Shown here piece by piece: positions 1 to 8,583 of a stretch of DNA of 8,583 nt (within the stretch, counting starts at the first letter, position 1; the number at the start of each line of letters is the position of its first letter). The notes under the pieces were generated by a model, which was given only the letters and a program-made list of their open reading frames with translations, was not told where the DNA came from and did not search any database. The stretch spans positions 1-8,583 of IMG/VR virus record IMGVR_UViG_2671180417_000003. The stretch is one strand, 5' to 3'. The DNA is from a virus. Its lineage: Duplodnaviria > Heunggongvirae > Uroviricota > Caudoviricetes. Both the position numbers and the translations under genes were made by a program.

Positions 1-138
1 TCTGCTTATCTTCGATTCATGACAGCCAATCATCTTTGCCAGACCGCGCTGGGTAAGCGTTGACAGGTTGATGAGTAAATCAGTTTCAGCGCGATCAATT
101 TCTCGCTGTGATAGTTTGCTGTAACTTGTTTGTTCCAT
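1..138 (-). CDS. CII-like transcriptional activator, N-terminal part only (gene starts at 138 and continues past the window start)
   Basis: Own minus-strand translation from ATG 138..136 is open to position 1: MEQTSYSKLSQREIDRAETDLLINLSTLTQRGLAKMIGCHESKISR. HTH-like segment (GLAKMIGCHESKISR) resembles lambda CII/P22 C1 family; in-frame stop two codons upstream fixes the start; position just downstream of cro-like gene on same strand matches cII. Not in ORF track because no stop inside window. Confidence 0.5.
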   Translation of the reverse strand, partial: MEQTSYSKLSQREIDRAETDLLINLSTLTQRGLAKMIGCHESKISR

Positions 139-176
139 TTCTTAAGATTTCCAATAGTGAATAGCTAGTTGAAAGG

Positions 177-194
177 TATGCGTGGAAACGCATA
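177..194 (-). promoter_or_regulatory. Perfect inverted repeat TATGCG-N6-CGCATA in the cro-like/cII-like intergenic leader (possible tR1-like or leader RNA structure)
   Basis: Plus strand 177-194 tatgcgtggaaacgcata: 6-bp perfect stem, 6-nt loop, followed on the minus strand by CCTTTC; lies 40 nt upstream of the cII-like start. Confidence 0.3.
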
Positions 195-220
195 TGGCCT
201 TAGTTGGTCAGATATATTGG

Positions 221-269
221 GACTCGCTTTGTCAGCGACGTAGGACGAATGTCCATTGTGAAAAGAGCG
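221..269 (-). promoter_or_regulatory. nutR-like region: boxA-like CGCTCTTTT, small hairpin GGAC-ATTC-GTCC, then conserved element TACGTCGCTGACAAAGCG
   Basis: Minus-strand reading just after the cro-like stop: CGCTCTTTT (plus 261-269) matches the lambdoid boxA core CGCTCTT; the 18-mer (plus 225-242) is 17/18 identical to an element in the N leader at 3175-3192; both can form a 4-bp stem around the loop TGACAAA. Confidence 0.45.
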
Positions 270-276
270 GTGTTAC

Positions 277-510
277 TTATGCAGCCGATGCTCTACGCGA
301 TACGAACACTAGGTTTTCCTTTTTCACAGGTTTATAACCCGTGAAATTACGAGTAGCTTCTTCGATTGCATTCGCTTTATCAGGGGAAGCTCTTCGAAAT
401 CCATATGCAATCTGGTCAAGATAGCCAACTGAAGTTTTCGCTAATGCGGCGAGTCGCTTCCATTCCTCACTAGAAGCCTCTTTTCGCCAGCGTAGTAGTT
501 CATTACTCAT
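277..510 (-). CDS. Cro-like small HTH DNA-binding regulator (77 aa)
   Basis: ORF track 277..510; SD GGAGG (plus 516-520 as CCTCC) 5 nt before ATG; HTH-like segment WKRLAALAKTSVGYLDQIAYGFRRASPDKANAIEEAT; divergent from the CI-type repressor across an operator-bearing intergenic region, the canonical cro position. Confidence 0.6.
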   Translation of the reverse strand: MSNELLRWRKEASSEEWKRLAALAKTSVGYLDQIAYGFRRASPDKANAIEEATRNFTGYKPVKKENLVFVSRRASAA

Positions 511-537
511 TAGTGCCTCCGTTTATCACACAGAACA

Positions 538-566
538 ACTTTACCATTTTGATAAATAATCCGCAA
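538..566 (-). promoter_or_regulatory. PR-like promoter for the cro-like gene: -35 TTGCGG (566..561), 17-bp spacer, -10 TAAAGT (543..538)
   Basis: Read on minus strand: TTGCGG-attatttatcaaaatgg-TAAAGT. Same -10 hexamer, same 17-bp spacing and same ATTTATCA motif inside the spacer as the PL-like promoter at 3082-3110. Confidence 0.45.
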
Positions 567-605
567 TGTAAATTTATCATATTGCGTATTTATCCATTTG
601 CTAAA
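540..605. promoter_or_regulatory. OR-like operator cluster: 17-bp dyads TTTACCattttGATAAA (540-556) and TTTATCcatttGCTAAA (589-605) plus half-site TTTATC (573-578); putative leaderless PRM (-10 GAAAAT 612-617)
   Basis: Three copies of the TTTATC/GATAAA half-site between divergent cro-like and cI-like genes; dyads have 6-bp arms and 5-bp AT-rich centre (17 bp, typical lambdoid operator size); the same dyad occurs perfectly at 3092-3108. Confidence 0.5.
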
Positions 606-623
606 TAGAGGGAAAATTGTGAG

Positions 624-1328
624 ATGGAAAACAAAGATATTCGCAAATCGAATCTGGCGTTTTTGCTAGATGAGCATAAAAAAATCGCGGGTAACACTAA
701 TGCAAGCTTTGCCGATAAGCTTGGGGTTAGCCCTTCTCAACTCACGCAAGTCTCCGGTGAAAAAAGCACTCGAAACATAGGGGATAAACTAGCAAGAAAA
801 TTTGAAGCCGCGCTTGGGTTACCTAATGGGTGGCTTGATTTGGTACATGATGTAACACCAATTGCATCATGCTCAGATTCTTTAACTTTTGTCGGTCAGG
901 TAAGAAAAGGGTTAGTGCGCGTGGTTGGTGAGGCAATTCTTGGTGTTGATGGTGCCATCGAGATGACCGAAGAGCGCGATGGGTGGCTCAAAATTTATAG
1001 CGATGATCCAGATGCCTTTGGTCTTCGTGTGAAAGGAGACAGCATGTGGCCCAGAATAAAATCAGGAGAATATGTACTCATTGAGCCTAACACCAAAGTA
1101 TTCCCGGGTGATGAGGTGTTTGTCAGAACCGTTGAAGGACACAACATGATTAAGGTTCTTGGCTATGACAGAGATGGAGAATACCAATTTACAAGCATTA
1201 ACCAGGATCACAGGCCTATAACGTTGCCTTATCATCAAGTAGCAAAGGTGGAGTATGTAGCTGGTATTCTGAAGCAATCTCGCCATCTGGATGACATCGA
1301 GGCAAGGGAGTGGCTGAAAAGTTCGTGA
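624..1328 (+). CDS. cI: CI-type prophage repressor: N-terminal HTH plus C-terminal S24 (LexA-like) peptidase domain, 234 aa
   Basis: ORF track 624..1328; HTH-like SFADKLGVSPSQLTQV; S24 catalytic dyad signature GDSMWP (Ser140) with Lys177 37 residues downstream (LexA-like spacing); divergent from cro-like gene. No Ala-Gly pair in the linker; position-equivalent is Leu106-Gly107. Confidence 0.9.
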   Translation: MENKDIRKSNLAFLLDEHKKIAGNTNASFADKLGVSPSQLTQVSGEKSTRNIGDKLARKFEAALGLPNGWLDLVHDVTPIASCSDSLTFVGQVRKGLVRVVGEAILGVDGAIEMTEERDGWLKIYSDDPDAFGLRVKGDSMWPRIKSGEYVLIEPNTKVFPGDEVFVRTVEGHNMIKVLGYDRDGEYQFTSINQDHRPITLPYHQVAKVEYVAGILKQSRHLDDIEAREWLKSS

Positions 1329-1388
1329 CTTCATCGTCACATAGCTGGTAACCAGTGGCCAGAAGAAACGTTTGGGTGAGGAGGATAG

Positions 1389-1730
1389 ATGGCGTTCACT
1401 GACCTTGAATATCAAGCGGTCAAAAAAGAAGTTCACCAATTCATTGAAAGCATAAGGCCGCCTGAACATATCCGCAATGAACTGGATATTGTTTATAGCA
1501 TCAATGACCAAACGATAGATATCGGCGAACAGCGCCCCGTGTGGCAGGGCAACCCAGGTGAAACAAACATCCTGCCATCAGCAAGAATCAAGTACATACG
1601 TTCTCTGGATAGATGGAAAATCTATTGGATGCGGAAGGATATGAAATGGCATCAGTACAGTACTGAACTTTCGCTGACTGATGCGCTTGAGCTTGTGCGT
1701 GCTGACCCGGATTGCTGCTTCTTCGGATGA
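1389..1730 (+). CDS. Hypothetical protein (113 aa), first gene after the repressor; function unrecognised
   Basis: ORF track 1389..1730; strong SD GAGGAGG (1378-1384) 4 nt before ATG; same strand as cI, 60 bp downstream; GC content similar to phage backbone; ends CCFFG. Confidence 0.7.
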   Translation: MAFTDLEYQAVKKEVHQFIESIRPPEHIRNELDIVYSINDQTIDIGEQRPVWQGNPGETNILPSARIKYIRSLDRWKIYWMRKDMKWHQYSTELSLTDALELVRADPDCCFFG

Positions 1731-1800
1731 GTGAAGAGACGTTTGGATGATGGATGATCGCAGAGATGCTCGTAGAGCATACAGCGATGCAGGAGAATTT

Positions 1801-2235
1801 ATGGCACTTAATTTAGAAAGAATATCTTTTATAACCCCATTTGATAGCAGCGAAGAACCCAACCAACCGACGCTTAATTTTACATGCAATGAATTTCCTG
1901 CGCGGCTATCAATTGATTTCAGGGTTGGTATGATCGGGTTGAAACCAAATTCAAGATATAATTTGGGTATTATGGTAATCCCCGCGCACCTAATTATAAA
2001 AAAAGGTGAGGAAATTCAATTCCCTGACGGCTCTTCGGAATCAGTTTCACTTTTCATCGATACGAAAGATAGCCATTTTGAAACAGGGGTTGGCGGACAG
2101 GTAATAGTAACATTGAAAGAAATTAGGGTCCCAGCTAAAGGGCTGTATAGTGTTATAGGGATATTGCAAGATAATGAAGACCCTAAAAATGAACTTCATA
2201 AAAATGAATCATTTTTCACCGTAGAGCTATTATGA
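1801..2235 (+). CDS. Hypothetical soluble protein (144 aa from ATG 1801; alternative start 1747 gives 162 aa); AT-rich cargo gene
   Basis: ORF track 1747..2235; preferred start ATG 1801 has SD AGGAG (1791-1795) with 5-nt spacer; stop TGA overlaps next start (ATGA at 2232-2235); AT-rich composition; no recognisable catalytic motif. Confidence 0.7.
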   Translation: MALNLERISFITPFDSSEEPNQPTLNFTCNEFPARLSIDFRVGMIGLKPNSRYNLGIMVIPAHLIIKKGEEIQFPDGSSESVSLFIDTKDSHFETGVGGQVIVTLKEIRVPAKGLYSVIGILQDNEDPKNELHKNESFFTVELL

Positions 2236-2852
2236 GTGACGACAGTAATTTAAATAATCATGGAAAGCAAGACACCAACATATCTGAAAGCCGGAGGTTG
2301 AAGGTTGTTGGCGGTTCCGATTTTGAGGCTGAATTTGATAATTCTCCCACCAAGGTGCAAAATAATTACATAAAACCGCCACAAACGGAGGAAGAAGTGG
2401 GAACGATCAGCAGAGAGGAACTTGATGCTCGCTTAGCTGCTAATAAAGCAGAGATGGAGTCTATTGCTTCTTCCATTAGGGCTGACATGGCTCTATCTCG
2501 TGAAAGCGTTAATGTCCAATTTGCATCACTTAATGCAGCCATAAGCTCTCTATCGTCCAAGATCGATGGAAAGATGGATAGCGCTGCTGGCGATATAAAA
2601 GCAATTAATGGGAGATTCGAAGGAATTCAAGGACAAATAACAGGGGTTAATACCGCAATTAGTGGTGTTCAGTCGGGTATTTCTATACGATTAGCCATTT
2701 TTAGTGTCATTATCGCTGTAATAGTTGCGATTCCCGGGCTGGTATCAGCTTTAAAGTCAGACCACGTACCTTTGCAACAGCCTTCCACTTTGCAAGCGCC
2801 GCCACAAAATACCCAGCCAACAGACAACAAAAAAATCACTCCCCAGCATTAA
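2232..2852 (+). CDS. Hypothetical single-pass membrane protein (206 aa) with long Ser/Ala/Ile/Gly-rich helical N-terminal region, one TM helix, Pro/Gln-rich C-tail
   Basis: ORF track 2232..2852; ATGA overlap with upstream gene; hydrophobic stretch IRLAIFSVIIAVIVAIPGLVSAL (about residues 152-174); C-tail KSDHVPLQQPSTLQAPPQNTQPTDNKKITPQH; AT-rich; followed directly by an intrinsic terminator. Confidence 0.75.
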   Translation: MSDDSNLNNHGKQDTNISESRRLKVVGGSDFEAEFDNSPTKVQNNYIKPPQTEEEVGTISREELDARLAANKAEMESIASSIRADMALSRESVNVQFASLNAAISSLSSKIDGKMDSAAGDIKAINGRFEGIQGQITGVNTAISGVQSGISIRLAIFSVIIAVIVAIPGLVSALKSDHVPLQQPSTLQAPPQNTQPTDNKKITPQH

Positions 2853-2858
2853 CGCATT

Positions 2859-2887
2859 AACCCGGCCTCAGCGCCGGGTTTTCTTTG
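2859..2887 (+). terminator. Rho-independent terminator closing the cI-downstream operon
   Basis: AACCCGGC-ctca gc-GCCGGGTT stem (GC-rich, 6-8 bp; 2859-2880) followed by TTTTCTTTG, 7 nt after the stop codon of the membrane-protein gene. Confidence 0.7.
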
Positions 2888-2993
2888 CCTCACGATCCCC
2901 ACACCTAAAAACACATAACCAATTGTATTTGTTGAAAAATAAATAGATACAACTTGCTAAACAACGCAATCCAGATCTCCCTCAAATCTCTTT

Positions 2994-3110
2994 ATTTATC
3001 CTGTCGAATTCCTACAACAAAATAAAACACCATAAGAATCAATACGATATTTGAAAACCAAGAGAATTTATCATTTTGCTATTGCCATTAATTTATCATT
3101 CCGATAAAGT
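2994..3110 (+). promoter_or_regulatory. PL/OL-like region: -35 TTGCCA (3082-3087), 17-bp spacer, -10 TAAAGT (3105-3110); perfect 17-bp operator dyad TTTATCattccGATAAA (3092-3108) plus upstream half-sites at 3067-3072 and 2995-3000
   Basis: Same half-site family (TTTATC/GATAAA) and same promoter hexamers/spacing as the OR/PR-like region at 538-605; shared 10-11-mers AATTTATCAT(T) at 3065-3075, 3090-3100 and 571-580, and TATTTATCC at 2993-3001 and 587-595; positioned about 250 nt upstream of the N-like gene. Confidence 0.5.
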
Positions 3111-3158
3111 TCACCCATCAGCAGGACGCACTACTCACCAGGGCGGTGAATATACAAC

Positions 3159-3193
3159 GATTCGAATATGAATCTACGGCGCTGACAAAGCGC
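3159..3193 (+). promoter_or_regulatory. nutL-like element in the N leader: hairpin GATTC-GAATAT-GAATC followed by TACGGCGCTGACAAAGCGC
   Basis: 18-mer 3175-3192 is 17/18 identical to the minus-strand element at 225-242 in the cro/cII intergenic region; stems GCGC/GCGC here versus TCGC/GCGA there (compensatory change) around identical loop TGACAAA; both are preceded by a small hairpin. Confidence 0.4.
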
Positions 3194-3358
3194 AATAACC
3201 AAAGTGAACTTTGGGGTGTGGTGAAGGGTTCATGGACGGGAATATGTCGCACGTAAAGCGGCGAGGCCTGCGGGACTATTGCCGAATTGAAGTAGGCCGA
3301 AACAGGTCGAAATGGGTCTCCCACCTACCACACCACCAAAGTTCATCAGGAGGTCTAT

Positions 3359-3742
3359 ATGACACGCAGAACTCAGTTCAAAGGCAATTCACGTTCTCGT
3401 CGTCGTGAGCGTTTAAAGGTAAAGGCATTAGCTAACGGCGTACTGGCCCGCGAAGAAGCAATAAGTTCAGAAGTATTACACCGCCCTACTCTAAGCAGAG
3501 CGCAGATTCAGGCTAAAGGTACTCACGAAACGCCTGAGCGCATAGAAGACGCTAAGCCAATTAAGTTCATGGCACAGGACGTGATCTGGCAACAGAAAGA
3601 ATACAGACGCAATCTGGAGCGAGCGGCCATTGTGTACGCGAATGAGTTTGGACATAAGCAACCAGAAACTGGTGTATGTCTTCCAAACGTAGCTCTTTAC
3701 GCGGCAGGCTACCGGAAATCAAAACAACTGACAGCAAGATGA
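3359..3742 (+). CDS. N: N-type transcription antiterminator (127 aa), Stx-phage/933W-like by recollection, with N-terminal arginine-rich motif
   Basis: ORF track 3359..3742; SD AGGAGG (3348-3353) 5 nt before ATG; N-terminus MTRRTQFKGNSRSRRRERLKVKALANG is a classic arginine-rich RNA-binding motif; first gene after the PL-like promoter and long structured leader. Confidence 0.75.
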   Translation: MTRRTQFKGNSRSRRRERLKVKALANGVLAREEAISSEVLHRPTLSRAQIQAKGTHETPERIEDAKPIKFMAQDVIWQQKEYRRNLERAAIVYANEFGHKQPETGVCLPNVALYAAGYRKSKQLTAR

Positions 3743-3803
3743 CTTGTGTTGGTCGCCAGAAAATGAAATTAGGCAGCAAACCACTTATTTGAGAGGAATT
3801 AAT

Positions 3804-4427
3804 ATGTCATCAATCCGCTTAACTACGAGAATGAAAGAGGAAATCGCTCGTAACGCTTTAATTAAGTCCGGGGTGTTCACTGAACTTGAAGAAGTAACAA
3901 AGTTAAAGAACCAGCTTGCACTTGACGCCAGAGTTATTGCGTTTGGCGGTAAAAAGAAAACTGAGGAAGTGGATCAGCTATCATCCAAGTTGGTAGCTAT
4001 AAGTGAAGAACTTGGAAAGATGGGATGTTCATTTTACTCATACGATGTTAGTTCTACTTCAATTTATCTGACTGTATCTGGCAGAAGGGTTGGATGGCAT
4101 TCATATGGGAAAGACGGCAACGGCAAAGATATATTGCTCCCTACTCCGATCAAAGATAAATGCATGTTTGACGCAGAACACGAAATAACAAAAAGGTTTG
4201 ATGAAATCTGCGCATTGCAACAAAAACTTGAAGCCAAGAAAAAGGATATCGAATCAAATGTATGGGCTGCTTTGAACTCAGTCACAACAGTTAAGCGACT
4301 TATTGAAGTTTGGCCTGAAAGCAAAGAATTGCTACCAAAAGAAGCAGATAAAGCAAGTACAGCACTTCCTGCTTTACGGGTAGAAGATTTGAATAAGATG
4401 ATTGGACTTCCTTCCGAGGCCGCATAG
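3804..4427 (+). CDS. Hypothetical protein (208 aa from ATG 3804), AT-rich accessory gene in the N-to-cIII slot
   Basis: ORF track 3744..4427 uses a TTG start; ATG 3804 preferred because of SD GAGAGGA (3791-3797) with 6-nt spacer; hydrophilic, Lys/Glu-rich with predicted coiled-coil-like segments; stop lies inside a terminator hairpin. Confidence 0.7.
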   Translation: MSSIRLTTRMKEEIARNALIKSGVFTELEEVTKLKNQLALDARVIAFGGKKKTEEVDQLSSKLVAISEELGKMGCSFYSYDVSSTSIYLTVSGRRVGWHSYGKDGNGKDILLPTPIKDKCMFDAEHEITKRFDEICALQQKLEAKKKDIESNVWAALNSVTTVKRLIEVWPESKELLPKEADKASTALPALRVEDLNKMIGLPSEAA

Positions 4428-4442
4428 TCGGCCTTTATTTTT
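4417..4442 (+). terminator. Rho-independent terminator (tL1-like) immediately after the 3804-4427 gene
   Basis: AGGCCG-catagt-CGGCCT 6-bp stem (4417-4434) followed by TTATTTTT (4435-4442); stop codon TAG sits in the loop. Confidence 0.65.
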
Positions 4443-4471
4443 GGCATAAACAACAGAATAAATACTGCACT

Positions 4472-4499
4472 GTGTATTCATTCCAACGAGTGAATACAC
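4472..4499. repeat. Perfect 9-bp inverted repeat GTGTATTCA-N10-TGAATACAC
   Basis: Seen directly at 4472-4480 and 4491-4499; no T-tract after it, so more likely a protein-binding dyad or RNA processing structure than a terminator. Confidence 0.4.
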
Positions 4500-4561
4500 G
4501 GAGCAATGTCGCTCGTAACTAAACAGGAGCCGACTTGTTCTGATTATTGGAAATCTTCTTT

Positions 4562-4586
4562 GCCCTCCAGTGTGAGGGCCTTTTTA
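4562..4586 (+). terminator. Rho-independent terminator (tL2-like) upstream of cIII
   Basis: GCCCTC-cagtgt-GAGGGC stem (4562-4579) followed by CTTTTTA; a second weaker hairpin AACGC-N10-GCGTT plus TTTTCG follows at about 4600-4623. Confidence 0.6.
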
Positions 4587-4648
4587 TATGCATACCAATA
4601 ACGCTTCACTCGAGGCGTTTTTCGTTATGTATAAATAAGGAGCACACC

Positions 4649-4813
4649 ATGCAATATGCCATTGCAGGGTGGCCTGTTGCTGGCTGCCCTTCCGAATCTT
4701 TACTTGAACGAATCACCCGTAAATTACGTGACGGATGGAAACGCCTTATCGACATACTTAATCAGCCAGGAGTCCCAAAGAATGGATCAAACACTTATGG
4801 CTATCCAGACTAA
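4649..4813 (+). CDS. cIII: CIII (54 aa), FtsH inhibitor that stabilises CII
   Basis: Translation [54 protein letters not shown] matches lambda CIII as I recall it; SD TAAGGAG (4636-4642) 6 nt before ATG 4649; the ORF-track entry 4547..4813 is an artefactual N-terminal extension through the terminator. Confidence 0.85.
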   Translation: MQYAIAGWPVAGCPSESLLERITRKLRDGWKRLIDILNQPGVPKNGSNTYGYPD

Positions 4814-4925
4814 ATTCACTATCGCCACTTTTATTGGCGATGAAAAGATGTTTCGTGAAGCCGTCGACGCTTATAAAAAATGGATATTAATACTGAAACT
4901 GAGATCAAGCAAAAGCATTCACTAA
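4782..4925 (+). CDS. kil: Kil (47 aa), host cell-division inhibitor
   Basis: [47 protein letters not shown] matches lambda Kil from memory; 32-nt overlap with cIII and 46-nt overlap with the gam long-form start, as in lambda; ORF-track 4656..4925 is an upstream extension. Confidence 0.75.
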
Positions 4926-4998
4926 CCCCTTTCCTGTTTTCCTAATCAGCCCGGCATTTCGCGGGCGATATTTTCACAGCTATTTCAGGAGTTCGGCC

Positions 4999-5295
4999 AT
5001 GAACGCTTATTACATTCAGGATCGTCTTGAGGCTCAGAGCTGGGCGCGTCACTACCAGCAGATAGCCCGTGAAGAGAAAGAGGCAGAACTGGCAGACGAC
5101 ATGGAAAAAGGCCTGCCCCAGCACCTGTTTGAATCGCTATGCATCGGTCATTTGCAACGCCACGGGGCCAGCAAAAAAGCCATTACCCGTGCGTTTGATG
5201 ACGATGTTGAGTTTCAGGAGCGCATGGCAGAACACATCCGGTACATGGTTGAAACCATTGCTCACCATCAGGTTGATATTGATTCAGAGGTATAA
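4999..5295 (+). CDS. gam: Gam, short form (98 aa), RecBCD inhibitor
   Basis: ORF track 4999..5295; near-identical to lambda Gam C-terminal 98 residues from memory; SD AGGAG (4987-4991). The upstream long-form start (ATG 4880) is in a different frame here, see findings. Confidence 0.9.
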
Positions 5296-5300
5296 AACGG

Positions 5301-6086
5301 ATGAGTACAGCACTCGCAACGCTGGCAGGGAAGCTGGCTGAACGTGTCGGCATGGATTCTGTCGACCCACAGGAACTGATCACCACTCTTCGCCAGACGG
5401 CATTTAAAGGCGATGCCAGCGATGCGCAGTTCATCGCATTGTTGATCGTCGCCAACCAGTACGGCCTTAATCCGTGGATGAAAGAAATTTACGCCTTCCC
5501 TGATAAGCAGAACGGCATCGTTCCGGTGGTGGGCGTTGATGGCTGGTCCCGCATCATCAATGAAAACCAGCATTTTGATGGCATGGACTTTGAGCAGGAC
5601 AATGAATCCTGTACATGCCGGATTTACCGCAAGGACCGTAATCATCCGATCTGCGTTACCGAATGGATGGATGAATGCCGCCGCGAACCATTCAAAACCC
5701 GCGAAGGCAGAGAAATCACGGGGCCGTGGCAGTCGCATCCTAAACGGATGTTACGGCATAAAGCTATGATTCAGTGTGCCCGTCTGGCCTTCGGATTTGC
5801 TGGTATCTATGACAAGGATGAAGCCGAGCGCATTGTCGAAAATACTGCATACACTGCAGAACGCCAGCCGGAACGCGACATCACTCCGGTTAACGATGAA
5901 ACCATGCAGGAGATTAACACTCTGCTAATCGCCCTGGATAAAACATGGGATGACGACTTATTGCCGCTCTGTTCCCAGATATTTCGCCGCGACATTCGCG
6001 CATCGTCAGAACTGACACAGGCCGAAGCAGTGAAAGCTCTTGGATTCCTGAAACAGAAAGCCACTGAGCAGAAGGTGGCAGCATGA
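5301..6086 (+). CDS. bet: Bet (Red-beta) single-strand annealing recombinase, 261 aa
   Basis: ORF track 5301..6086; sequence [88 protein letters not shown]... recognised as lambda Bet; followed by exo with ATGA overlap. Confidence 0.95.
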
Positions 6087-6763
6087 CACCGGACATTATC
6101 CTGCAGCGTACCGGGATCGACGTGAGAGCTGTCGAACAGGGGGATGATGCATGGCACAAATTACGGCTCGGCGTCATCACCGCTTCAGAAGTTCACAACG
6201 TGATAGCAAAGCCCCGCTCAGGAAAGAAGTGGCCTGACATGAAAATGTCCTACTTCCACACCCTGCTGGCTGAGGTTTGCACCGGTGTGGCTCCGGAAGT
6301 TAATGCTAAGGCGCTGGCCTGGGGAAAACAGTACGAGAACGACGCCAGAACCCTGTTTGAATTCACTTCCGGCGTGAATGTTACTGAATCCCCGATCATC
6401 TATCGCGACGAAAGTATGCGCACCGCCTGCTCTCCCGATGGTTTATGCAGTGACGGCAACGGCCTTGAGCTGAAATGCCCGTTTACCTCCCGGGATTTCA
6501 TGAAATTCCGGCTCGGTGGTTTCGAGGCCATAAAGTCGGCTTACATGGCCCAGGTGCAGTACAGCATGTGGGTGACGCGAAAAGATGCCTGGTACTTTGC
6601 CAACTATGACCCACGAATGAAGCGTGAAGGCCTGCATTATGTCGTGGTTGAGCGGGATGAAAATTACATGGCGAGTTTTGACGAGATGGTGCCGGAGTTC
6701 ATCGAAAAAATGGACGAGGCACTGGCTGAAATTGGTTTTGTATTTGGGGAGCAATGGCGATGA
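6083..6763 (+). CDS. exo: Exo (lambda exonuclease, Red-alpha), 226 aa
   Basis: ORF track 6083..6763; [69 protein letters not shown]... recognised as lambda Exo; ATGA start overlap with bet stop. Confidence 0.95.
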
Positions 6764-6942
6764 AGCATCCTCACGATAATATCCGCGTAGGCACGATCAC
6801 TTTCGTCTACTCCGTTACAAAGCGAGGCTGGGTATTTCCCGGCCTTTCTGTTATCCAAAATCCACTGAAAGCCCAGCGGCTGGCTGAGGAGATAAATAAT
6901 AAACGAGGGGCTGTATGCACAAAGCATCTCCTGTTGAGTTAA
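6760..6942 (+). CDS. Small protein (60 aa), lambda orf60a-like
   Basis: ATG 6760 overlaps exo stop (ATGA); [60 protein letters not shown]; ORF track gives 6754..6942 from an upstream in-frame ATG. Confidence 0.7.
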
Positions 6943-7106
6943 GAACGAGCATTGAGATGGCACATAGCCTTGCTCAAATTGGAGTCAGGTTTGTGCCAAT
7001 ATCAGTAGAAACAGACGAAGAATTTCATACGTTAGCCGCATCCCTTTCACAAAAGCTGGAAATGATGGTGGCGAAAGCAGAAGCAGATGAGAGAGACCAG
7101 GTATGA
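6915..7106 (+). CDS. Small protein (63 aa), lambda orf63-like
   Basis: ORF track 6915..7106; SD GAGGGG (6905-6910); overlaps preceding gene by 28 nt; sequence [63 protein letters not shown]. Confidence 0.7.
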   Translation: MHKASPVELRTSIEMAHSLAQIGVRFVPISVETDEEFHTLAASLSQKLEMMVAKAEADERDQV

Positions 7107-7186
7107 CAACCACTGAATGCATTCTTCTGGCAGCGGGCTTTATATTCTGTGTGCTTATGCTTGCCGACATGGGACTTGTTCAATGA
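7103..7186 (+). CDS. Candidate small hydrophobic peptide (27 aa) MTTTECILLAAGFIFCVLMLADMGLVQ
   Basis: Own translation; ATG 7103 overlaps the orf63-like stop (ATGA) and its stop overlaps the next start ATG 7183 (ATGA); hydrophobic core compatible with a single TM helix; not in ORF track (below size cutoff). Confidence 0.3.
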   Translation: MTTTECILLAAGFIFCVLMLADMGLVQ

Positions 7187-7398
7187 CACCTCAGCAGGAA
7201 AACGCCCTTCGCAGCATTGCCCGTAAGGCTAATTCTGAAATCAAAAAAGCCAGACAGCAGTTTCCGGATAAAAACGTCGATGACATTTGCCGTAGCGTAC
7301 TGAAGAAGCACCGCGAAACGGTAACGCTGATGGGATTCACACCGACTCACTTAAGTCTGGCAATCGGTATGTTAAACGGCGTCTTTAAGGAACGGTGA
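7183..7398 (+). CDS. Small protein (71 aa from ATG 7183), lambda orf61-like
   Basis: ORF track 7117..7398 starts at an ATG with no SD; ATG 7183 (MTPQQENALRSIARKANSEIKKARQQF...) is translationally coupled to the upstream small ORF; basic, hydrophilic. Confidence 0.6.
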   Translation: MTPQQENALRSIARKANSEIKKARQQFPDKNVDDICRSVLKKHRETVTLMGFTPTHLSLAIGMLNGVFKER

Positions 7399-7419
7399 AC
7401 ATGAAAAGCAAAATCATCA

Positions 7420-7444
7420 GGGAGCCACAGGCTCCTTTTTTATT
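7420..7444 (+). terminator. Rho-independent terminator after the orf61-like gene
   Basis: GGAGCC-aca-GGCTCC stem (7421-7435) followed by TTTTTT (7436-7441) and ATTATT. Confidence 0.55.
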
Positions 7445-7496
7445 ATTCGCATTCACCCTCAAGCGTATTAACCAACAATTCAGGGATTAATGAAAG

Positions 7497-7718
7497 ATGG
7501 CGGACATCATTGATTCAGCATCAGAAATTGAAGAATTACAGCGCAATACAGCAATAAAAATGCGTCGTCTGAACTACCAGACTATATCCGCCACTCATTG
7601 TTGCGAGTGTGGCGATCCGATAGATGAGCGGCGACGCCTGGCTGTTCGTGGATGCAGAGCTTGCGCCAGTTGCCAGCAGGATATTGAACTTATCAACAAA
7701 CAGAGAGGTGTGAAGTGA
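7497..7718 (+). CDS. TraR/DksA-family C4 zinc-finger protein (73 aa), lambda Orf73-like RNA polymerase secondary-channel binder
   Basis: ORF track 7497..7718; four-Cys motif C-C-E-C ... C-R-A-C-A-S-C (CCECGDPIDERRRLAVRGCRACASC) and size typical of TraR; position in exo-ea22 interval. Confidence 0.8.
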   Translation: MADIIDSASEIEELQRNTAIKMRRLNYQTISATHCCECGDPIDERRRLAVRGCRACASCQQDIELINKQRGVK

Positions 7719-7999
7719 ACATCAACACCACGATAACGATCGATACAGCCCTGAACACCGGCCTAGCGCTCCTTGGTTATTTCTACATCATGTTCTGCAG
7801 CGGACGATGGCTGTCACTGTTGTTCATGAAAAAATGGAATAAACGCCGTAAGCAGGAGCAACGCCAAAAGGCAATAGATGCATTTTTCGAAGCCTTCGGT
7901 ATTGACGGCATGGAACCAGGGGATCCAGCTCGCGCAATTAGCAGAGGGGGCGTAGTAATCCTTGTATACCGGAGTGAAGAGAAAAATGAGCAAGATTGA
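7715..7999 (+). CDS. Hypothetical small membrane protein (94 aa), GTG start overlapping upstream stop
   Basis: ORF track 7715..7999; GTG 7715 overlaps TGA of the TraR-like gene; SD AGAGAGG (7702-7708) 6 nt upstream; hydrophobic segment LNTGLALLGYFYIMFCSGRWLSLLF followed by basic KKWNKRRKQEQRQK. Confidence 0.5.
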   Translation: MNINTTITIDTALNTGLALLGYFYIMFCSGRWLSLLFMKKWNKRRKQEQRQKAIDAFFEAFGIDGMEPGDPARAISRGGVVILVYRSEEKNEQD

Positions 8000-8583
8000 C
8001 TATCAGGCACTGCGTGAAAAGGCAGAGAAAGCAACTAAAGGAAGCTACATCGTAGGGCATACATCTGTTAACCAGCACGGCAATTTAACAGGAGTTTTTG
8101 TTTGCCAAAAATGGAAAGGAGAACCCGGTGGCGTGATTGCGGAATGTCATGTTAACTGCCTGATTGAATCAGATGCTCAGGCTTATGCAAACGCTGAATT
8201 CATAGCAGAGGCTAACCCGGCTACCGTGCTGGCACTGCTGGATGAACAGGAAAGAAACCAGCAATACATCAAACGCCGTGACCAGGAGAACGAGGATATT
8301 GCGCTAACGGTAGGGAAGCTGCGTGTTGAGCTTGAAGCAGCAGAGAACAACCTTATTGATAGCGAATGCCATGTTGCTGAACTGGAAGAAGCACTACGCG
8401 ATAAGCAGGCGTTACTTGAAGCCTCAGAAAAGCGCAACGCAAAATTACAAAGCGAGAATGCATACATCCGCAACCGGTACAAAGAACTGGACCTATTAAT
8501 CGGGAAAAACATTCTGGTCATGCAGGCTGCCATTATCGAATGGCAGGCAACTGGCGACGCTAAGAGCGGACTAGCATGGATTT
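7986..8583 (+). CDS. Ea22-like protein, N-terminal 199 codons (runs off window end)
   Basis: Own translation from ATG 7986 is open to the window end: MSKIDYQALREKAEKATKGSYIVGHTSVNQHGNLTGVFVCQKWKGEPGGVIAECHVNCLIESDAQAYANAEFIAEANPATVLALLDEQERNQQYIKRRDQENEDIALTVGKLRVELEAAENNLIDSECHVAELEEALRDKQALLEASEKRNAKLQSENAYIRNRYKELDLLIGKNILVMQAAIIEWQATGDAKSGLAWI; coiled-coil-rich C-terminal part; N-terminus resembles Ea22-family proteins from memory. Missing from ORF track because no stop inside window. Confidence 0.7.
   Translation, partial: MSKIDYQALREKAEKATKGSYIVGHTSVNQHGNLTGVFVCQKWKGEPGGVIAECHVNCLIESDAQAYANAEFIAEANPATVLALLDEQERNQQYIKRRDQENEDIALTVGKLRVELEAAENNLIDSECHVAELEEALRDKQALLEASEKRNAKLQSENAYIRNRYKELDLLIGKNILVMQAAIIEWQATGDAKSGLAWI

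Follow-up and report, generated by a model that had tools for sequence, protein, structure and literature searches.

A conserved prophage gene pair in the rexAB slot of a lambdoid immunity region as a candidate two-component phage-exclusion module

What is the function of two overlapping genes, one for a small soluble protein and one for a protein with a single transmembrane (TM) helix, that stand between the repressor gene cI and N of a lambdoid prophage? The question was addressed for the 8,583 nucleotides (nt) at positions 1 to 8,583 of virus record IMGVR_UViG_2671180417_000003, a stretch referred to throughout as the window. The window is the early-left/immunity region of a lambdoid prophage, reversed relative to the lambda map. 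By genomic context, the soluble partner and the TM protein could form a lysogen-expressed, Rex-like two-component phage-exclusion module, a tentative reading to which we assign a probability of about 0.45. For neither protein was there a match to NCBIfam, to a named PHROG or, at scores above the threshold, to Pfam. The pair and its parts are laid out as follows:

1791-1795, + strand: Shine-Dalgarno sequence AGGAG for the probable partner start at ATG 1801, read from the sequence
1801-2235, + strand: partner gene, type A, 144 amino acids (aa); soluble product with a predicted immunoglobulin (Ig)-like beta-sandwich and without signal peptide
2232-2235, + strand: ATGA start/stop overlap of partner and TM protein genes (-4 overlap; translational coupling)
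2232-2852, + strand: TM protein gene, ATG start, 206 aa, phrog_5820
2232-2405, + strand: N-terminal head, residues 1-58, variable in the alignment and predicted disordered (predicted local distance difference test, pLDDT, 44-58)
2406-2687, + strand: coiled-coil stalk, residues 59-152 (AlphaFold2 (AF2) helix, heptads, family signature at its start)
2562-2687, + strand: six I-x-G-x-[IMF]-x-x heptads, residues 111-152, at the end of the stalk (heptad display)
2688-2753, + strand: single transmembrane helix, residues 153-174 (Kyte-Doolittle value 2.71, AF2 helix 150-174), with R153 on the cytoplasmic side
2754-2852, + strand: Pro/Gln-rich tail, residues 175-206 plus stop, predicted periplasmic

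The case for exclusion starts from the operon in which the pair stands, the landmarks of which are:

277-510, - strand: cro, divergent from cI
624-1328, + strand: cI-type repressor with a helix-turn-helix (HTH) domain and an S24 peptidase domain (Pfam Peptidase_S24, E=3.8e-16; phrog_4, transcriptional repressor), named LexA family regulator in RefSeq
1389-1730, + strand: DUF3024 gene, 113 aa (Pfam DUF3024, E=2.4e-31; PADLOC candidate PDC-S43, E=7e-42)
2859-2880, + strand: intrinsic terminator, equivalent of lambda Timm (8-bp stem with 6 GC pairs, T-run; annotated Timm in HK542)
after the terminator: oL/pL

Since a terminator scan found no + strand terminator between cI and position 2859, and no strong or convincing internal promoter was found in the same interval, the TM protein gene is the last of the repressor operon (cI, DUF3024, partner, TM protein, Timm), and its product should, to judge from these signals, be made in the lysogen. 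The GC content of the cassette falls to 0.39-0.43, as is typical of morons. An earlier note on this DNA, made from the sequence alone, had left out this operon context and the DUF3024 neighbour, as well as the probable mis-start of the partner treated below.

The exclusion reading, like the abortive-infection effector or exclusion protein suggested in the earlier note, fits this position because the slot in the cI operon holds rexAB, bstA and a HigB-like toxin-antitoxin (TA) module in other phages. The interval between cI and N has been described as a mosaic hotspot housing rexAB and the abortive-infection gene bstA (PMC8585504, PMC7067206). When the window was aligned with HK542, ev243 and BP-4795, which between them carry four cargoes, homology started exactly at the terminator stem ACCCGGCCTCAGCGCCGGGTTTT, which marks the terminator as the conserved right-hand junction of an exchangeable cargo slot; about 120 nt after the stop of the TM protein gene are common to many lambdoid phages. 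The cargo of ev243 ends in rexB (rexA-rexB), with homology to the window resuming exactly at the terminator, and that of BP-4795 ends in a gene adjoining the HigB-like TA module. In the length of cI (705 nt) and in the oL region, the window is the same as BP-4795 and the H-19B-type Stx phages.

Two further observations concern the slot itself. In BP-4795 (locus L050, 1851-3192) it contains a HigB-family toxin, an HTH regulator and a hypothetical gene, and many Stx1a phages, like BP-4795, combine a cI of the same length and an identical oL with HigB-family cargo, the cargo being swapped between fixed junctions. At positions 2846-2861 of the window, and in HK542 too, eight base pairs are perfectly duplicated in direct orientation (GCATTAAC GCATTAAC) across the stop of the TM protein gene and next to the terminator junction; this duplication may be a scar left when the cassette was recombined into place.

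According to the depositors' annotation, the order in HK542 and HK244 runs from pRM through a lambda-type cI and the same two genes, at 98% identity, to Timm and oL. The DUF3024 gene is absent from both phages, the homology of which to the window begins at 1732, just past its stop. The DUF3024 gene is thus a cassette independent of the two-gene module, and because it is separate, the slot in the window contains two candidate defence cassettes, one stacked on the other. The presence of this adjacent candidate defence gene, PDC-S43, was counted in favour of the exclusion reading.

As to how such a module might work, the exchangeable partner would be the specificity subunit, acting as sensor and/or inhibitor, and the conserved stalk-anchor protein the membrane-acting component. 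The cytoplasmic Ig-like partner would dock on the head of the TM protein; superinfection would alter the head-partner complex, upon which the oligomer would perturb the inner membrane or the entry site and the incoming phage would be stopped.

Several lines of evidence suggest that the two proteins belong together. The earlier note had proposed tight ATGA coupling and co-expression with a partner. The overlap is present (ttATGAgt at 2232-2235), and the same -4 spacing is kept in every type-A locus except that of Xenorhabdus (L003, -8), with spacings of -4 to +18 nt for the other partner types. Across the 52 loci with the TM protein gene, a small upstream open reading frame (ORF) ends -8 to +18 nt from it in all but one (L034), and upstream ORFs precede two remote relatives on short contigs (P0066 and P0108) with gaps of 0 and 11 nt. 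Locus contexts were drawn from IMG/VR and exact look-ups. The upstream genes fall by BLAST clustering into at least four unrelated types:

type A: 143-172 aa, the type found in the window
type B1: 96-97 aa
type B2: 98-101 aa
type C: 112-120 aa, with CxxC pairs, zinc-ribbon-like

Scans of types B and C against Pfam and NCBIfam gave no matches. When the TM proteins are grouped by the sequence of their heads, the groups coincide exactly with the partner types, whereas the stalk and anchor are common to all; binding of the partner by the head would produce such a pattern. Computationally, the proposed co-expression is thereby borne out, both by the linkage in 51 of 52 loci and by the covariation of head and partner type. 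We propose that head residues 1-58, which include a short conserved motif (LKVVGGSDFEAEFDN), serve as the docking site for the partner, and infer that the TM protein works as an obligate pair with the protein encoded by the coupled upstream gene. Type C varies among loci L033-L036 (partner region at about 5480-5842): the partner has 112 aa and an 18-nt gap in L033, 120 aa and an ATGA overlap in L035 and L036, and no intact ORF in L034, which suggests frameshift variation or partner decay in some copies.

The partner ORF is open from 1747, and RefSeq annotates a protein of 162 aa from the ATG at that position. The true start is probably the ATG at 1801, because orthologues in Klebsiella, Cedecea and L032 have 143-144 aa and begin at the equivalent Met, the HK542 annotation gives the 144-aa form, and AGGAG stands at 1791-1795. 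Both the partner gene and the TM protein gene are under purifying selection. For the core of the TM protein, the proportion of nonsynonymous differences (pN) was 0.13-0.22 versus a saturated synonymous proportion (pS) of 0.76-0.92 in comparisons with L023, L032 and L037, which include Klebsiella and Cedecea; head and tail are under less constraint than the core.

The architecture of the TM protein largely agrees with what the earlier note had read from its ORF, the position, strand and ATG start of which were reproduced. The sole hydrophobic segment spans residues 154-174, with a best 19-residue Kyte-Doolittle window of 2.71 (the usual TM cut-off for this window length being ~1.6), so that the single TM helix placed by the note at IRLAIFSVIIAVIVAIPGLVSAL (residues 152-174) holds, as does the Pro/Gln-rich tail at residues 175-206. 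The note had also described a long low-complexity helical domain before the TM helix. The helix stands; the low complexity turns out to be a heptad repeat, and the first ~58 residues form a disordered head instead of a helix. An AF2 monomer model built from 23 homologues predicts disorder for residues 1-60, one continuous helix for 61-139 (pLDDT 81-91 across residues 61-110), a TM helix at 150-174 and a disordered tail. The heptads stay in phase with the TM helix, and homologues differ from each other by indels of exactly 7 residues in the alignment; a search for a tandem repeat at the DNA level of the TM protein gene found none. The stalk of ~92 residues would measure about 13 nm and run in heptad phase into the TM helix, holding the variable head in the cytoplasm and letting ~30 Pro/Gln-rich residues reach the periplasm.

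This orientation is favoured because a signal-like segment is rare (90 of 94 relatives lack a hydrophobic stretch at the N-terminus), the region N-terminal to the TM helix is long and charged (median of 152 residues with ~38 charges), and Lys plus Arg are richer on its N-side (1.64 vs 1.07 on the C-side; the N-side has more in 41 members and fewer in 7). We infer that the protein sits in the inner membrane in the manner of a tail-anchored protein, its N-terminus inside and its C-terminus outside. The features of the tail-anchored class are all found, namely absence of a signal peptide, a single TM helix near the C-terminus and a predicted cytoplasmic location for the bulk of the N-terminal part; the 32-residue tail of the TM protein lies at the upper limit for this class, with tails of 1-8 residues in some relatives.

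Regarding the oligomeric state, both core positions of the membrane-proximal heptads are occupied by Ile/Val. That Ile-Ile cores favour trimers is an established rule, reportedly described by Harbury in 1993. In a comparison of the family profile with the PDB, the best match was a SlaB-like protein (8qox_B, E=3.4e-5), covering stalk plus TM helix; the further best matches were reovirus sigma-1, HA2, P22 gp26 and SadA, all of them trimeric coiled coils. Because of the Ile/Val cores and the uniformly trimeric profile matches, a parallel trimer is the most likely state of the TM protein. The suggestion of an oligomerising, membrane-anchored coiled coil in the earlier note is thus computationally upheld by heptads, 7-residue indels and profile matches alike.

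Weak coiled-coil matches were used only as support for this trimeric coiled-coil character, and the families behind them were rejected as relatives. The archaeal S-layer anchor SlaB (8qox_B; NF040788) resembles phrog_5820 in combining a Ser/Asn/Leu-rich trimeric coiled coil with a C-terminal TM helix; unlike the TM protein, it is extracellular and secreted and has beta-sandwich domains. With an NF040788 match of 19 bits versus a cut-off of 700, the likeness is almost certainly one of architecture and composition and does not make the TM protein a SlaB member. Matches to Baculo_PEP_C (PF04513)/NPV_P10 (19.6 bits, E=1e-3; gathering score 38 bits) were read as a compositional coiled-coil resemblance, those to pore-forming toxins of the ClyA family (SmhB, E=0.013; MakE, 15.6 bits versus a cut-off of 360) were non-significant and are all that points to the pore-forming action suggested in the earlier note, and that of the TM protein to LmuB in PADLOC (E=0.016) was taken as noise. 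Matches to Rota_VP6, apolipoproteins, HA2 and sigma-1 lay far below the family cut-offs and were taken as coiled-coil/TM composition.

The TM protein matches phrog_5820 with E=3.6e-76 (residues 1-201 on profile positions 1-199 of 200); the profile was also matched by 60 of 60 sampled relatives. A word-indexed search returned 28 relatives in Enterobacterales, and a profile search of 1.84 billion representatives returned 283 clusters at a limit of E<=1e-3, or 101 if the limit is set at E<=1e-10; their lengths are almost all 150-270 aa. Relatives are named 'hypothetical protein' in every source, P0015 alone being auto-named after Baculo_PEP_C. The members are built alike: the N-terminus is variable and is followed by a signature, by a coiled coil in which the number of heptads varies, by one TM helix and by a tail. 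The stalk opens with the signature R-[ED]-E-L-x-A-x-L-x-x-N-K-A-E-V (REELxAxLxxNKAEV), which 108 of 149 family members have, and the TM segment is kept across the family. Tails comprise 1-60 residues and carry a hydrophobic motif, PIIIQVP / PTVIYVQQP, in 50 of 94 members; in the window copy, the motif of most relatives reads PSTLQAP and is diverged.

Of 5426 complete E. coli genomes, 51 have the close variant, each time as a single chromosomal copy in a prophage; among sequenced phage isolates, only HK542 and HK244 have it. Individual family sequences occur on hundreds of contigs, and prophages of E. coli and Klebsiella contain the family recurrently; all loci examined placed the family member within a prophage. 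A scan of genome contigs with the family alignment gave one locus (Xenorhabdus), a yield limited by the pattern method. A repressor, a small ORF and the TM protein follow one another in this order time and again, down to 34% identity, whether the repressor is of the S24 type or a short HTH protein. Examples come from E. coli, Klebsiella, Cedecea, Salmonella, Yersinia and Pectobacterium, and from a prophage on an IncC plasmid of Providencia. Pairs also occupy moron sites in the tail region (L038, L041 and L053). The two genes move as a unit, as follows from the recurrence of their order behind different repressors and at these moron sites. In one locus (L040, 4502-4984), an extra protein of 160 aa with an N-terminal TM segment is encoded between the repressor and the pair, a further case of stacked cargo.

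Beyond the terminator and oL/pL, the window contains:

3359-3742: N
3744-4427, + strand: gene with an Nmad5 domain (nucleotide modification associated domain 5), directly after N (Pfam E=4e-71, phrog_1965)
4636-4694, + strand: Lambda_thermo, the cIII thermoregulator (Rfam, 88.5 bits), overlapping the cIII start
about 4649-4813: cIII, a lambda-like ORF beginning MQYAIAGWPV...
4999-5295: gam
5301-6086: bet
6083-6763: exo

The Nmad5 gene is also present in HK542 and is replaced in the otherwise identical prophage of E. coli S1-IND-01-A.

Several points weigh against exclusion as the function of the pair. The slot between cI and N carries non-defence cargo too, for example TA modules. No defence model of PADLOC-DB v2.0.0 was matched by either protein (databases up to 2023), and a recognisable enzymatic or channel domain was found in neither. 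The AF2 model of the TM protein is that of a monomer, one long helix with a mean pLDDT of 58.8, and the structure model of the partner is moderately confident (67.8). A rigid 13-nm stalk and a conserved periplasmic motif would be superfluous for a simple pore-former and may instead point to scaffolding, sensing or entry blocking. A search of the accessible literature found no functional study of these genes.

The main rival, which we consider unlikely, is superinfection exclusion (Sie) at entry. Here, the inner-membrane protein would block genome injection, for example by acting through its periplasmic tail on tape-measure/ejection proteins or on the entry permease of the host, and the cell would survive. 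Expression in the lysogen and the predicted inner-membrane location suit this explanation, and prophage Sie proteins such as P22 SieA sit in the inner membrane (PMC10883804); known Sie proteins are, however, single-gene systems and unrelated, and an obligate, exchangeable cytoplasmic partner is unexpected for a simple blocker. The tail itself speaks on both sides: the PIIIQVP / PTVIYVQQP motif in about half of the family suggests periplasmic contact, but some relatives are nearly tail-less (1-8 residues) and the motif is degenerate in the window copy. The strongest constraint, moreover, falls on the signature of the cytoplasmic stalk.

A further possibility, quite unlikely in our estimate, starts from DUF1640/CCDC90-like proteins (PF07798; MCUR1, CCDC90B and prokaryotic relatives). 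It takes phrog_5820 as a prophage branch of the DUF1640/MCUR1-CCDC90 superfamily turned immune device, in which a trimeric stalk and an exchangeable head-partner sensor would bring about membrane failure or an entry block. Infection would be sensed either from the envelope via the periplasmic tail or in the cytoplasm via the Ig-like partner, and a conformational change in the coiled coil would convert the signal. Both families place a coiled-coil stalk before a C-terminal TM anchor, the DUF1640-like stalk facing the cytoplasm or matrix in trimers of 'head-neck-stalk-anchor' type. DUF1640 proteins are integral membrane proteins of prokaryotes and mitochondria, in which a beta-layer motif, [aliphatic]-A-T-K-[polar]-[DE], opens the C-terminal stalk (PMC4786415). 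The most conserved motif of the phrog_5820 family, A-x-L-x-x-N-K-A-E, which opens the stalk with a near-invariant N-K-A-E, resembles it, and 53 of 149 members have A-[NT]-K-x-[DE]. PF07798 was matched by 30 of 60 distant members over the part of the model that covers stalk and anchor (positions ~75-170 of 175, within ~67-171), with 23-30 bits (23.5-30.2) versus a gathering score of 33.5 bits; the TM protein of the window gave no match at E<=0.1. The conserved head of DUF1640 (model ~1-70) is absent, its place being taken by a short variable head and a separate partner gene, and for this reason membership is not regarded as established. A distant relationship in architecture is plausible from these comparisons.

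The same resemblance, sub-threshold as it is, could be turned towards lysogenic conversion or regulation, with the stalk-anchor protein as a scaffold that alters the host envelope, stress tolerance or virulence, or tunes the lysis-lysogeny switch. The absence of a catalytic domain would agree with a scaffold, and lysogen-expressed prophage genes include the non-defence genes lom and bor (PMC7067206). We nevertheless regard this as improbable, given that both the slot and its PDC-S43 gene next to the pair are linked to defence (PMC8585504), that the rapid swapping of partners and heads looks like arms-race modularity, and that the module is sporadic in E. coli, always in a prophage.

If anything still less probable is a TA-like addiction pair, in which the free membrane protein would be toxic, the upstream partner would neutralise it, and the main benefit would be prophage maintenance. 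A small upstream gene translationally coupled to a conserved downstream membrane protein, the combination of the conserved component with several unrelated upstream genes and the HigB-type TA module in the same slot of BP-4795 are all in line with this, but a DNA-binding domain for autoregulation is absent and expression is from the repressor promoter, not from a promoter of the pair's own. As many TA systems are defence systems, this explanation also overlaps with exclusion. A lysis protein (holin, antiholin, XhlA-like or i-spanin-like) misplaced beside the immunity genes is hardly credible: a single TM helix plus coiled coil and weak PHROG matches to hemolysin and Rz-like spanin families in 1-2 of 60 distant relatives are offset by the lysogen-expressed repressor operon in place of a late lysis cassette, a C-terminal TM helix versus the N-terminal one of i-spanins, the absence of an adjacent o-spanin or endolysin gene, and the absence of a match of the window protein itself to those PHROG families.

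Returning to the Rex-like exclusion module as the preferred reading, its interest lies in the slot, in which lambdoid prophages keep BstA and RexAB, the latter being the abortive-infection system that has been known longest. If active, a second, unrelated soluble-plus-membrane pair replacing rexAB in phages of lambda immunity would represent an independent solution to the same problem, and a tail-anchored trimeric coiled coil would be a structurally new type of effector for defence. A conserved stalk-anchor with swappable heads and partners follows the modular logic typical of immune systems. An active module could also help to explain the DUF1640/MCUR1-like proteins, which are poorly understood; were the immune-device explanation true, it would define a new anti-phage class and provide the first defined prokaryotic function among relatives of the mitochondrial MCUR1 family. 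Since HK542 and HK244 are available in culture, the module is directly testable.

Among known systems, lambda RexA/RexB is the closest in context. It occupies the same slot and operon, after cI and before Timm and oL/pL, and in HK542 and HK244, which have lambda immunity, the cassette stands where lambda keeps rexA-rexB. The gene order is also the same, with the soluble protein first and the membrane protein second. The proteins themselves differ: RexB has ~144 aa and is polytopic (4 TM helices), whereas the TM protein has one C-proximal TM helix and a long coiled coil; RexA has ~279 aa, whereas the soluble protein here is a predicted beta-sandwich of 144 aa. No Rex family was found among the PHROG and PADLOC matches of either protein, and we know of no T4 rII-type exclusion phenotype for the pair.

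HK97 gp15 and T4 Imm belong with the inner-membrane superinfection-exclusion proteins. P22 SieA is a prophage inner-membrane Sie protein (PMC10883804). Being encoded by temperate phages, expressed in the lysogen, small, inserted in the inner membrane and protective, Sie proteins have traits that the predicted TM protein shares in part; they are non-homologous to it and single-gene, without a long coiled coil or a cytoplasmic partner. BstA of the Salmonella prophage BTP1 is an abortive-infection defence encoded directly downstream of the repressor and co-transcribed with it (PMC8585504). In contrast to the pair, it is an unrelated, single soluble protein at phage replication sites, without a membrane component. 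Soluble-plus-membrane exclusion cassettes are known from this slot; new is a conserved, unannotated prophage gene pair in the place of rexAB, with proteins unrelated to Rex.

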